From: Phycisphaerae bacterium
GTDB taxonomy: Bacteria > Planctomycetota > Phycisphaerae > SM23-33
DNA length: 36,410 bases
NCBI GenBank assembly: GCA_035686585.1
Contig: DASRZG010000048.1
Coordinates: forward strand, 1 to 36,410
Direction of reading: 5' to 3'
Below the pieces are notes generated by a model that made no database searches, was not told the origin of the DNA, and worked only from the letters and a program-made list of their open reading frames with translations. This document shows positions 23,221 to 35,388 of the stretch, piece after piece. A program made the translations under genes and the position numbers. Position 1 is the stretch's first letter; every line of letters begins with the position of its first letter.

Positions 23221-23282
23221 CGTTTAGCGGTCGTCGGTACGACGACCTCCAAGAAGGCGGTCGTTCCGACCGCCGCTAAACG
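23221..23282 (-). promoter_or_regulatory. long imperfect hairpin in the 195-220 nt murG-murC spacer
   Basis: cgtttagcgg (23221-30) pairs perfectly with ccgctaaacg (23273-82), and the inner stems are imperfect. The flanking sequence 23130-23220 is visibly less GC-rich (ggaaaagggaactccattattcttatcg). Confidence 0.3.
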
Positions 23283-24520: not shown

Positions 24521-25732
24521 TTATTCGGAGATCGGTAGGTCCGCCGGGCGCCGGGCGGTCACGGAGACGATCATCGCCGCCGCCGCGGCCATGGCCAGCA
24601 GGCCGGATCCGCCGGCGGAGATAAACGGCAGCGAGATGCCCGTCGGCGGCAGCCACTTGACGTTGACGGCGATGTGCATCGCCGCCTGCAGGCCGATCAG
24701 GAACCCCAGCCCGCCCGCCAGCAGAGACCCGAAGCGGTCCGGCGACCGCATCACCGCCCGGCGGACCAGCCACAGCCAGATCAGCAGCAGCCCGATCACC
24801 AGCACCACGCCCATCACGCCCAGCTCCTCGCACAGGGGCGAAAAGATGAAGTCGGTGCTGTCCTCGGGCAGGTAATCGTACTTGGCCACGCCGCGCCCCA
24901 GCCCGGCCGGGTCCGCCCCGGAGGCGATCGAGATCAGCGCCTGCCGCGGCTGGTAGGAGGCCGGACGGGTGCTGGTCAGGGGCTCGGCGAGGGCGAGCAT
25001 CCGTTCCCACCGATGCGGCGTGCGAAAGACGAACAGGTAGAACGCCGCCGCCCCCCCGCCGGCCGGCAGCCAGAAGTGATGCAGCGGCACGCCCGCCATC
25101 CACATCAGCGCCGCCGCCGCCAGGGCGATGATCACGGCCGTGCCGAAGTCCTGCGTCACCACCAGCCCGCAGGCCACCCCCACCAGGGCGATCGCCGGCA
25201 GGAACGTCCGCCGGAAGGAGCGGATCTCAGGCCCGCGCCGCGACAGAAAGACCGCCAGGGCGATCAGCACCGCGAACTTCAGCACCTCCGAGGGCTGGAA
25301 ACCCACCGGCCCGTACCGCAGCCACCGCAGGCGCCCGCCGACCGCCTGCCCCAGGACCAGGACGCACACGGCGCCGGCCAGTGCCACGGCCAGCAGGCCC
25401 CAGGTCAGCCACAGGCGGCGATTGAAGACGGTGTAGTCCAGGCGCCACAGCGTCAGCAGGATGACCGCGGCCGCGGCGGCGAAGATCCCCTGCCGGATGT
25501 CGCGCCGGTAGTACCAGCTTACCGTCCGGGGCGGCTTTTCGGCAGCGGGAGCGGCAGCGGCGCCGTCGGCCTGGGTCTGCGAGGGAGGGCGCCTGTCGCC
25601 GCCGACCGTCGAGGCCACCATCACCACGCCCAGCGCGATCAGCGAGAGCGCCACCAGGATCAGCGCCTGCCCGGTGGGGTTGCGCCCCAGGGGCACGCGC
25701 CGGAGCCGTCCGCCGTCCATGGCGTTGTCCAT
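24521..25732 (-). CDS. ftsW: SEDS-family peptidoglycan glycosyltransferase FtsW
   Basis: It is a polytopic membrane protein. The conserved SEDS C-terminal region is present (PEDSTDFIFSPLCEELGVMGV..., GISLPFISAGGSGLL). The position upstream of murG fits. GAGGA lies 7 nt upstream of ATG 25732. Confidence 0.85.
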   Translation of the reverse strand: MDNAMDGGRLRRVPLGRNPTGQALILVALSLIALGVVMVASTVGGDRRPPSQTQADGAAAAPAAEKPPRTVSWYYRRDIRQGIFAAAAAVILLTLWRLDYTVFNRRLWLTWGLLAVALAGAVCVLVLGQAVGGRLRWLRYGPVGFQPSEVLKFAVLIALAVFLSRRGPEIRSFRRTFLPAIALVGVACGLVVTQDFGTAVIIALAAAALMWMAGVPLHHFWLPAGGGAAAFYLFVFRTPHRWERMLALAEPLTSTRPASYQPRQALISIASGADPAGLGRGVAKYDYLPEDSTDFIFSPLCEELGVMGVVLVIGLLLIWLWLVRRAVMRSPDRFGSLLAGGLGFLIGLQAAMHIAVNVKWLPPTGISLPFISAGGSGLLAMAAAAAMIVSVTARRPADLPISE

Positions 25733-25775
25733 GCATTCATCCTCAGTTTCAGCCTGTCATCCCGGGGGGCGGGAA

Positions 25776-25879
25776 AACACGAATTACACGGATTACAGCG
25801 AATTACACGAAACGAATGATGTTGTTTCTCAACAAATGCTGTCTTCGTGTAATTCGTCTTAATTCGTGCAATTCGTGTT
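25776..25879. repeat. AT-rich imperfect inverted repeat (36-nt arms, 32-nt centre); each arm is built from three ~10-nt GAATTACACG-like direct repeats
   Basis: The left arm is aacacgaattacacggattacagcgaattacacgaa (25776-25811). The right arm is ttcgtgtaattcgtcttaattcgtgcaattcgtgtt (25844-25879). By hand alignment 31 of 36 positions are complementary. The element lies between the mraY stop (25908) and the ftsW start (25732). Confidence 0.75.
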
Positions 25880-25907
25880 CCCAGGCCATCCGAACCAACA
25901 GCGCGCA

Positions 25908-27341
25908 TCAGCGCAGCGTCAGCGTCGCCACCGCCACCGCGGCGAACATCAGTCCCAGCAGCCAGAACCGCACCACCACCTTCGACTCGGCCCATCCGAG
26001 CAGGTGGAAGTGATGGTGGATCGGCGAGCAGCGGAAGATCCTCTGCCCGCCGGTCATCTTGAAGCAGCCCACCTGGAGGATCACGCTGACCGCCTCCATC
26101 ACGAAGATGCCCCCGGCGATCAGCAGCATCATCTCCTGGCGGGTGACCACGGCCACGTACCCGATCAGCCCCCCCAGCGGCAGCGACCCGGTGTCGCCCA
26201 TGAACACCTGCGCCGGCAGGCAGTTGAACCACAGGAACCCCAGGCACGCCCCGATCATGGCCGCGCACAGCACGGTCAGCTCGGCCGAGGAGGGAACGAA
26301 CGGCAGGTGGAACTGGCACGCCCACTGCGCCACGCCCGTTACCCACGTCAGCAGAAGGAACACCGCCGCCACGATCAGCATGCACCCCCCCGCCAGCCCG
26401 TCCATGCCGTCGGTGAGGTTCACCGCGTTGGACGAGCCGACCATCACCAGCACCGTCACGATCACGAACGCCGCCACCGGCAGCGCGAACGGGCCCGCGT
26501 CGATCGGCAGGAAGAAGTACTGCATCGCGCTGCCCTGCCCGCGGGCGAGCATCTCCTTGAGGTTCGCCCCGATCGGCCAGTCCGCGTCCGGCCAGAAGCA
26601 ACTGTGCTTGCCGTGATGGTGGATGAAGAACGACAGCAGCACCGCCAGGGCGATCTGGAAGAGGACCTTCTGGTAGCTCCTGAGCCCGTCTCGCGTGGGC
26701 TTGGCGTCGGCGCCGGCGGCACGCGCCAGCCGGGCGGCACGCAGCTTCAGCCAGTCGTCCACCGCGCCCAGCCCGGCCAGCCAGATCACCACCATGAAGG
26801 CCATGCGGACGTAGAAGTTGACCATGTCGGCGAACAGGTACGTGGCCACCAGGATCGCCAGGACGATCAGGATCCCGCCCATGGTGGGCGTGGCGGACTT
26901 GTGTCGGGTCAGCTCGTTCAGCTCGGCATGGTCGAACTCGGGGCGGTCTCCCAGCTTCATCCGGACCAGCCAGCGGATCGTCCGCGGGCTCAGCATCGCC
27001 ACCACCAGGAAGCTCGTCACGGCGGCGCACACCATCCGCAGCGTCAGCTTCTGCCCCCCGAACAGGGGCCAGATCGACCACCGCACCAGCAGCACGGCCC
27101 CCAGGGCGCCCAGGGCCCAGGCGGCGGCGGTGGCGGGTTTTCTCCAACGGACCGGCCAGGGGGTCGTCCGCGGGCTCAGCAGCAGCCCCATCAGGATGCT
27201 CGTCACCGCAGCGCACACGCTCGGCGGCAGCTTCTGCCCCCCGAACAGGGGCCAGATCGACCACCGCACCAGCAGCACGGCCGCCAGGGCGCCCAGGGCC
27301 CAGGCGGCGGCGGTGGCGAGTTTTCTCCAACGGTTCAGCAC
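25908..27341 (-). CDS. mraY: phospho-N-acetylmuramoyl-pentapeptide transferase, with a duplicated N-terminal membrane segment
   Basis: ATPTMGGILIV, NAVNLTDGMDGLAGG, VFMGDTGSLPLGGL and PIHHHF are MraY signatures. I place the start at GTG 27341, which overlaps the murF stop (GTGCTGA). The track ORF extends to 27941, but that stretch lies inside murF and I reject it. Confidence 0.85.
   Translation of the reverse strand: MLNRWRKLATAAAWALGALAAVLLVRWSIWPLFGGQKLPPSVCAAVTSILMGLLLSPRTTPWPVRWRKPATAAAWALGALGAVLLVRWSIWPLFGGQKLTLRMVCAAVTSFLVVAMLSPRTIRWLVRMKLGDRPEFDHAELNELTRHKSATPTMGGILIVLAILVATYLFADMVNFYVRMAFMVVIWLAGLGAVDDWLKLRAARLARAAGADAKPTRDGLRSYQKVLFQIALAVLLSFFIHHHGKHSCFWPDADWPIGANLKEMLARGQGSAMQYFFLPIDAGPFALPVAAFVIVTVLVMVGSSNAVNLTDGMDGLAGGCMLIVAAVFLLLTWVTGVAQWACQFHLPFVPSSAELTVLCAAMIGACLGFLWFNCLPAQVFMGDTGSLPLGGLIGYVAVVTRQEMMLLIAGGIFVMEAVSVILQVGCFKMTGGQRIFRCSPIHHHFHLLGWAESKVVVRFWLLGLMFAAVAVATLTLR
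26979..27333. repeat. tandem direct duplication (2 copies, period 183-186 nt) inside the mraY 5' coding region
   Basis: The copies are 26979-27150 and 27165-27333. The 106-nt cores (27045-27150 and 27228-27333) match at 104 of 106 positions by hand alignment. The remaining ~65 nt of each copy is much more diverged and carries a 3-nt indel. Confidence 0.85.
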
Positions 27342-35115: not shown

Positions 35116-35322
35116 GGGGTAAAAAGTGAAAAAAACGCCGAACCTGTTTCCACAACCCCCTTCATACCCGTCCTATAGGGTATTCCCAGGCGTGGGCACC
35201 CCATATCTTGGGGCCGACGGCGGAGAAGAATTTTTCCATGGACCGTCTGCGTTCCCCTTCTGCAACCCGGTCTCGGCGGACGCGCCGCGGGCGCGGCTTG
35301 CGCCCTTCCGGGTGTGGAGAAC

Positions 35323-35388
35323 AGCAACGACGCCGAACGGCAAGCCGACTGCCGGGATTGGCTTGGCCGTTCGGCGTCGTTGCTTTTC
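35323..35388 (+). terminator. strong terminator-like hairpin plus T-run inside the leader of the nucleotidyltransferase gene
   Basis: agcaacgacgccgaacggcaagcc (35323-46) pairs with ggcttggccgttcggcgtcgttgct (35360-84). That is 24 bp with one bulged G and a 13-nt loop, followed by tttc. It lies 75 nt upstream of ATG 35459. Confidence 0.5.

Follow-up and report, generated by a model that had tools for sequence, protein, structure and literature searches.

The stretch of DNA analysed here (the window, 36,410 nt from a Phycisphaerae bacterium) carries a dcw cluster with the gene order ftsI-murE-murF-mraY-ftsW-murG-murC-murB-ddl, without murD. The genes on either side of the element under study are both encoded on the minus strand. 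The operon-upstream gene, mraY (25908-27332), matches Glycos_transf_4 and MraY_sig1; its stop codon lies at 25908 and its start codon is approximate. Upstream of the MraY core the open frame exceeds the usual 360 aa by about 110 aa, and relatives align to the 474-aa frame only from residue 84-94 or so. The operon-downstream gene, ftsW (24521-25732, FTSW_RODA_SPOVE), starts with an ATG at 25732, and a GAGGA ribosome-binding site is found between the element and this ATG. The spacer between the two genes is occupied by a palindromic element of about 142 nt (25754-25895), which comes as close as 12 nt to the mraY stop and 21 nt to the ftsW ATG. Its limits are set by a family HMM built from 12 copies (nhmmer score 125, E 2.9e-36).

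The earlier note had described positions 25776-25879 as an AT-rich inverted repeat with 36-nt arms of three subrepeats each, 31 of 36 positions complementary, around a 32-nt centre with a palindrome of its own, and every detail of this anatomy was borne out. Counted from the arm sequences, 31 of the 36 positions of the arm at 25776-25811 are complementary to the arm at 25844-25879. Each arm is composed of three direct units of 9-10 nt with start-to-start distances of 9 and 10 nt. Arm 1 (plus strand, ftsW-proximal) shows the units CGAATTACA, CGGATTACAG and CGAATTACACGAA and belongs to a 'beta' flavour with TTACAG in the middle unit. Arm 2, which reads AACACGAATTGCACGAATTAAGACGAATTACACGAA on the minus strand, belongs to an 'alpha' flavour with TTAAGA in the middle unit; transcription of the dcw cluster reaches this arm first on leaving mraY. 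The centre (25812-25843) contains the small palindrome ttgtt-tctc-aacaa at 25822-25835, and most copies of the family have a TGTTGTT(T)/AACAAC motif in their centre. The G+C content of the element is 0.42-0.48, compared with about 0.70-0.75 on either side and 69% in the genome. Outside the AT-rich part the palindrome continues in a G+C-rich extension, CCCGGGGGGCGGGAAA (25754-25775), which pairs with the outer extension on the mraY side, CCCAGGCCATCCGAAC (25880-25895). Taken as a longer inverted repeat, the arms reach 49 nt each (25763-25811 and 25844-25892) with 78% complementarity. Copies of the same genome conserve the extension weakly (pattern CACGGGG-N6-GGAG), and those of other genera do not.

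The statement that the motif does not recur elsewhere in the window also held: with up to one mismatch, CGAATTACACG was found four times in the window, every time within the element, where 0.24 matches were expected. As for the long hairpin proposed for the transcript, the RNA of the spacer is predicted to fold with -72.1 kcal/mol (z = -6.1), better than all 200 shuffled sequences. When Rfam was searched at a permissive threshold only sub-threshold matches to microRNA precursors were obtained (best 31.5 bits, gathering score 200), and these point to nothing more specific than a long hairpin. No terminator- or promoter-like site was detected at the element; a single terminator-like site (25915-25902) coincides with the mraY stop codon and lies outside it. 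The element is not an assembly artefact, because three independent assemblies with identical FtsW (ENA, JGI and Logan) carry it in identical form; one of the contigs ends inside an arm. An element of this kind is polar, in that one arm has a TTAAGA middle unit and the other TTACRG in the window copy and 15 others. Among copies with both arms typed, the TTAAGA arm came first along the flanking transcription at seven distinct loci and second at one, which suggests an orientation bias relative to flanking transcription, although the cases are too few.

The position between mraY and ftsW is exactly the canonical place of murD, and the earlier note had considered that the element might be the scar or footprint of the event which removed murD from the dcw cluster. 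The genomic context leaves virtually no probability for this. Eight relatives compared across family, order and class, and 27 further genera belonging to the family, all have ftsW immediately after mraY; most of these spacers are short and free of the element, many measuring only 10-50 nt. Because mraY and ftsW are adjacent without murD in all of the approximately 35 relatives checked, the relocation of murD is ancestral and unrelated to the element. Related genomes encode murD elsewhere, away from murE, murF and murC, in 24 of 25 cases (TIGR01087 above cut-off). In the present metagenome-assembled genome (MAG), which is 78% complete, no murD was found above this cut-off, and the gene likely lies in the missing 22%. 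Moreover, relatives with an FtsW identity of 63-64% have empty spacers of 47-53 nt, so the arrival of the element came long after the departure of murD.

The element does not stand alone. Its genome, a 4.77-Mb MAG of 674 contigs, contained 107 BLAST matches to it. The core 11-mer motif, with up to one mismatch, matched 186 times, compared with 16 matches for a reversed control. The family HMM identified 48 merged loci, all of them intergenic and many at contig ends, or 39 loci once arms not more than 450 nt apart were joined. They include about 20 full palindromes of approximately 140 nt as well as solo arms. Copies are typically located 0-60 nt from each neighbouring gene, and the orientation classes of the neighbours equal the genome background. 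Full copies were also present in three related genera (G016, G017 and G009). The element thus belongs to a generic dispersed family, and the idea of a locus-specific device, for which the earlier note had itself named a genome-wide search as the check, fails on the 48 HMM loci and 186 motif matches. Seven arm pairs were split by a cargo of 200-540 nt, which consisted of other, nested repeat families. A long autonomous copy was not found in the genome, the larger inserts between split arms being nested repeats of other families. There was no excess of flanking direct repeats that could represent a target-site duplication at offsets of 0-44 and k = 2-8, and the mode of insertion has thus left no recognisable mark.

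Further dispersed repeats were noticed in the same genome. A second architecture, built on the subrepeat of the element itself, combines GTCCACGAATTnCACGAATTnCACGAA with a purine-rich spacer, GAAGAAGCAGCAG, in three to seven tandem units with a period of about 55-60 nt, often followed by the inverted array (C296:1900-2350, C561:380-1000, C659:3700-3930, C239:7220-7500, C519:6030-6260, C586:1-220 and C423:12980-13280). The same purine-rich spacers flank the GxxExxY genes, described below, on contigs C567 and C401. Two other hairpins of the window, at 23221-23282 in the murG-murC spacer and at 35319-35388, belong to dispersed families as well (38 and 22 BLAST loci, respectively).

The history of the mraY-ftsW site could be followed in relatives. 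The nearest non-identical one (FtsW identity 78%) has an element of the same type, termed type A, between mraY and ftsW; its orientation is unchanged, and a different repeat is nested in its centre. Since the site is filled in this relative and empty in the relatives with 63-64% FtsW identity, the insertion is old: a short spacer received the element before this genome and the nearest relative diverged. The relatives with empty spacers are too distant for the exact boundaries of the insertion, or a duplication, to be read from them. Two sequences of the nearest relative with identical FtsW (L293:1153-1500 and L294:1095-1500) differ by 58 nt within the repeat nested in the centre, so that a further repeat is still polymorphic here for its presence or absence. 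Between the orthologous copies the arms are identical at 80 of 92 positions (87%) and the flanks at 46 of 68 (68%; Fisher p 0.006). For comparison, codon positions 1, 2 and 3 of ftsW are 84%, 88% and 71% identical to the same relative. Because arm identity exceeds flank identity, the arms must have been either constrained or homogenised.

The conservation acts on the sequence of the arms and not on their base pairing. In 13 copies from the genome of the window none of 30 predicted pairs showed a compensatory change, and the covariation term was +0.73. Arms within one copy are 79% alike, compared with 82% between copies, and the differences between the orthologs fall at the variable motif positions of the family and leave pairing unpreserved. 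These observations bear on the main functional idea of the earlier note, an RNA element specific to this locus or domesticated by the dcw operon, whose predicted hairpin would serve as an RNase III or other processing site, a stabiliser or an attenuator and would set the ratio of mraY to ftsW. Such a role could hold in addition to a mobile origin, and it would agree with the very stable predicted fold (-72 kcal/mol, z -6.1) and with the retention of the copy, its arms better conserved than its flanks, since before the split from the nearest relative. We nevertheless consider it distinctly unlikely. About 40 other copies lie in unrelated spacers, the predicted pairs lack compensatory change, the arms resemble those of other copies more than their own partners, and neither a terminator nor a promoter is recognisable at the element.

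A further point in favour of such a role is the occupancy of the same spacer in other genera. By eye, subrepeat palindromes of at least five arm types were seen in the mraY-ftsW spacer of 8 of 30 genera of the family. Under a strict rule for subrepeat palindromes the count was 4 of 30, against a baseline of 4.2% in the genome of the window (P 0.036), a statistic that is only moderate as the rule under-calls obvious cases such as G014. The occupied spacers are those of G049 (L261), G014 (L265), G015 (L270), G062 (L276), G073 (L280), G001 (L284), G046 (L288) and G002 (L066), with subrepeats such as CACGAAG, CAATTG, CATTAGACA, CACAGAG, GGGAACMGG and GCAGAGA. The spacer element of G002 matches the arms around the only GxxExxY gene of that genome. 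Those of G014 and G015 are themselves members of dispersed families. The mraY-ftsW spacer is either unusually permissive or a preferred site, and this is the sole locus-specific oddity; the occupancy across genera keeps a co-option of the element alive at low probability.

A partner gene for the element emerged from a wider comparison. One exact terminus, GAACACGAATTNCACGRATT, occurred in at least 117 stretches of GTDB genomes, compared with roughly nine expected by chance (our own estimate, based on uniform base composition). Most matches came from Bacteroidota and the others from Phycisphaerae, Planctomycetaceae, Nitrospirota and Acidobacteriota, and the architecture of inverted arms was shared. 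All-against-all clustering of every open reading frame within 3 kb yielded a single recurrent family, which was present at 12 loci and mostly 2-230 nt from an arm. It encodes the 125-aa GxxExxY protein (TIGR04256, E 1.5e-44; PF13366, PDDEXK_3, E 6e-44). In two Bacteroidota loci (L153 and L231) the gene lies between inverted arms, and in two more (L234 and L169) it adjoins CACGAATT arms. Next to the gene of L231 there is a deletion derivative which has kept its ends and lost the open reading frame, and which is a miniature in the making. The link was also found in G016, a genus of the same family as our organism: at C14:49713-50249 a GxxExxY open reading frame is bracketed by arms that match the family HMM (E 2.7e-8 and 1.8e-8), with the termini GAGAACACGAATTACAC and GTGTTCTC.

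The association is not restricted to this arm type. When the GxxExxY genes of the present genome and six relatives were considered together, 17 of 18 had flanking inverted arms with tandem subrepeats of 8-10 nt at an arm score of at least 34, a value reached by only 1.8-2.6% of random genes from the present genome. The arm types comprised CACGAATTN, CRCAGAGNN, CGCGAACNN, CACGAAGGN, GGGATTACN and GATGCAGGG. On a tree of the GxxExxY proteins the arm types were clustered, requiring 7 changes compared with a mean of 16.2 after shuffling, and none of 200 shuffles matched this value. It follows that gene and arms travel as a unit. This co-inheritance shows such a unit and not an action of the protein on the arms. 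On the same tree the type-A protein from the planctomycete is placed apart from those of Bacteroidota.

The genome of the window encodes three GxxExxY genes (hmmsearch against a six-frame translation), which have arms of types B, C and F. None with type-A arms was found in the assembled 78% of the genome (674 contigs), which does not prove that the gene is absent. Gene-less loci numbered 41 for type A, 36 for B, 21 for C, 20 for F and 6 for D; as types B, C and F have one gene each, gene-less copies exceed gene-bearing ones by about 20-40 to 1. In the protein itself the residues D68, E78 and K80 are invariant, and so is the G..E..Y motif. Its AlphaFold model (pLDDT 93) has its best structural matches in the PDB in Cas4, lambda exonuclease, RecE and a homing endonuclease, and the protein is confidently modelled as a minimal PD-(D/E)XK nuclease. 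A search of the PDB by sequence gave no match, and PADLOC and PHROGs returned only weak matches to the nuclease core. In the literature we found no functional study of GxxExxY, and PF13366 has been given as 'Unknown' (PMC3424549).

Taken with the arms recognised by the family HMM around GxxExxY genes of relatives, these data make it probable that the element of the window derives from a palindrome-bounded GxxExxY cassette, as a non-autonomous miniature without the gene. By such a cassette we mean a unit of about 0.5 kb in which the gene for the 125-aa protein (TIGR04256/PF13366) is placed between two inverted arms whose tandem subrepeats measure 9-10 nt, in this case CACGAATTN; the definition is a working one, and we found no published description of such a cassette. 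Elements of this class should have two inverted arms with two to four tandem subrepeats of 8-10 nt each, and the window element has three units per arm with 31 of 36 positions complementary. The same arm family should bracket a GxxExxY gene somewhere, as it does at G016:C14:49713-50249. Gene-less intergenic copies should far outnumber those with a gene, and none of the 48 loci defined by the HMM, or of the 41 defined by the strict motif, contains one. Both filled orthologous sites (here and in the relative with 78% FtsW identity) and empty ones (at 63-64%) exist. A cognate gene with the same arm type was not found in the same genome, where the three genes of the 78% complete MAG do not include type A. 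The centre of the window element occupies the position at which gene-bearing relatives have the GxxExxY open reading frame and the nearest relative has its nested repeat.

A model of how such elements spread can be outlined from this architecture. The nuclease would recognise the phased subrepeats, of which each arm has three at intervals of about one helical turn; indeed, a protein-binding array, as the earlier note suggested for the six similarly phased sites, remains the best interpretation of their arrangement, with binding being the presumed function. Cleavage at or near the element would then allow host repair or recombination to copy the unit, and gene-less copies would depend on the enzyme acting in trans, in the way proposed for REPINs and their RAYTs. 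At the mraY-ftsW junction the element would be co-transcribed within the dcw operon and tolerated, and its predicted long hairpin may affect mRNA processing. We infer this nuclease-driven mobility from the association of gene and arms. Gene conversion among copies or a host function could also account for the conserved arms of the orthologous copy. The element is no scar of murD loss, nor probably a dedicated regulator of the dcw cluster.

Other candidates for a binding protein were considered. MraZ has as its operator direct repeats of the TGGGN type, which lie ahead of mraZ in the promoter region of the dcw cluster. The repeat unit CGAATTACA does not resemble TGGGN and the site between mraY and ftsW is far from the 5' end of the operon, so a link with MraZ, which the earlier note had named as the local regulator to try, is unlikely. 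Possible resemblances to DnaA boxes (TTATCCACA), parS half-sites and integron attC sites were considered and dropped. Any single host factor would be an unfit partner, because at least five arm families with unrelated subrepeats exist in the same genome and each is tied to its own GxxExxY lineage.

The elements might also owe their spread to a transposase. One such possibility is a repeat of the REPIN or TIR type that is moved by a Y1 transposase (RAYT/TIRYT, IS200-like). The doublet-hairpin architecture and the intergenic spread without target-site duplication resemble REPINs and TIRtrons (PMC3116915, PMC3733652), and genes of this kind are present: 20 Y1_Tnp genes above cut-off were detected in this genome (for example C7:4472-4723, C250:5820-6032, C478:5859-6203 and C232:9127-9414) and 32 in four relatives. 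Several of them are flanked by other high-copy repeats with 26-158 loci each, such as the palindrome GGGTGCCACGGGCTGCTTGCAGCCCGTG, so that REP/RAYT-type systems coexist with GxxExxY-type families. The element family, however, was absent from all 40 Y1_Tnp loci inspected together with flanks of 1.5 kb; this genome contributed 10 of them and G015, G016, G017 and G009 the other 30. Its arms are arrays of direct repeats and not self-complementary REPs, they lack GTAG or CGTC tags, and GxxExxY was the only open reading frame found between arms of the family. A Y1 enzyme as the driving force is therefore highly improbable. Much the same low probability attaches to a classical MITE, that is an internally deleted IS whose DDE transposase would bind subterminal repeats as in IS21, Tn7 and Mu. 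Terminal inverted repeats with several internal sites are what such an element would show; in addition conservation across genera is strongest at the termini, GAGAACACGAATT, and copies with variable cargo exist. But the cargo consists of nested repeats, no open reading frame of transposase size was present between the arms at the inspected loci, and a target-site duplication was not found at any symmetric offset (k = 2-8). A transposase-bearing element with the same termini was not seen among the copies of this genome, 20 loci of relatives and at least 117 GTDB loci, and the unsupervised clustering of neighbouring genes produced no transposase family. A GxxExxY cassette as the parent of the miniature remains the reading we prefer.

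Among known systems the closest parallel to this cassette family is provided by REPIN-RAYT and the REPtrons and TIRtrons (Bertels & Rainey 2011, PMC3116915; Di Nocera et al. 2013, PMC3733652). In both cases many short intergenic hairpin doublets occur without target duplication, the repeat also brackets one or a few genes of the enzyme, a single genome can house several repeat families with an enzyme lineage of their own, and copies persist for long at orthologous sites. The differences are that the bracketed gene encodes a 125-aa PD-(D/E)XK nuclease (GxxExxY) and not an HUH/Y1 transposase, that the arms consist of tandem 9-10-nt direct repeats where REPs are self-complementary and tagged by GTAG or CGTC, and that no Y1 gene at the 40 loci examined was flanked by the element family. 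With bacterial MITEs (Correia/NEMIS, ERIC, RUP and Nezha) the elements share the size of 100-150 nt, the absence of coding capacity, terminal inverted repeats and a dispersed location between genes; both are often co-transcribed as hairpins inside operons and break short-read assemblies. Unlike MITEs, they show neither a target-site duplication nor a parent IS with a DDE transposase, and the gene-bearing form encodes only a small nuclease. A small open reading frame between long stem-forming inverted repeats is also typical of the intervening sequences in 23S rRNA of Coxiella and Leptospira, which, where they contain the reading frame, are regarded as selfish and move by unknown means (PMC4990558). 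These, however, reside in rRNA helices and not between protein-coding genes, they encode the four-helix bundle S23p instead of a PD-(D/E)XK protein, and for the present elements an excision by RNase III would be hypothetical. Finally, phased short direct repeats at each end in inverted orientation are found at the ends of Tn7, Mu and IS21 and, as iterons, on plasmids, and are a hallmark of multimeric protein binding. The repeat unit of those systems measures about 19-22 nt compared with 9-10 nt here, and the present family lacks a transposase or Rep gene and reaches dozens of copies per genome.

A more far-reaching version would be that GxxExxY nucleases and their palindromes form an undescribed class of repeat-plus-enzyme mobile elements in many phyla and that the mraY-ftsW copy has possibly been co-opted for the division operon. 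It appears conceivable because the arms seem to have been constrained in sequence since before a genus-level split and because the spacer is occupied by different arm families in about a quarter of the related genera. A co-opted copy may, for instance, act as an insulator bound by the nuclease or another protein, or as a processing site, and thereby uncouple the expression of mraY from that of ftsW. We regard the combination as rather unlikely.

For the locus itself the main message is negative, as the palindrome tells nothing about the relocation of murD. The wider meaning lies in the repeats and their enzyme. Repeats of this kind explain many contig breaks of MAGs and many of the hairpins in essential operons that look regulatory. 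PF13366/TIGR04256 is a large family without assigned function, and through the link with the palindromes a DNA substrate, open to experimental test, can be predicted for each member. The data suggest a second partnership of enzyme and repeat, independent of RAYTs, which would shape the intergenic DNA of Planctomycetota, Bacteroidota and other phyla.
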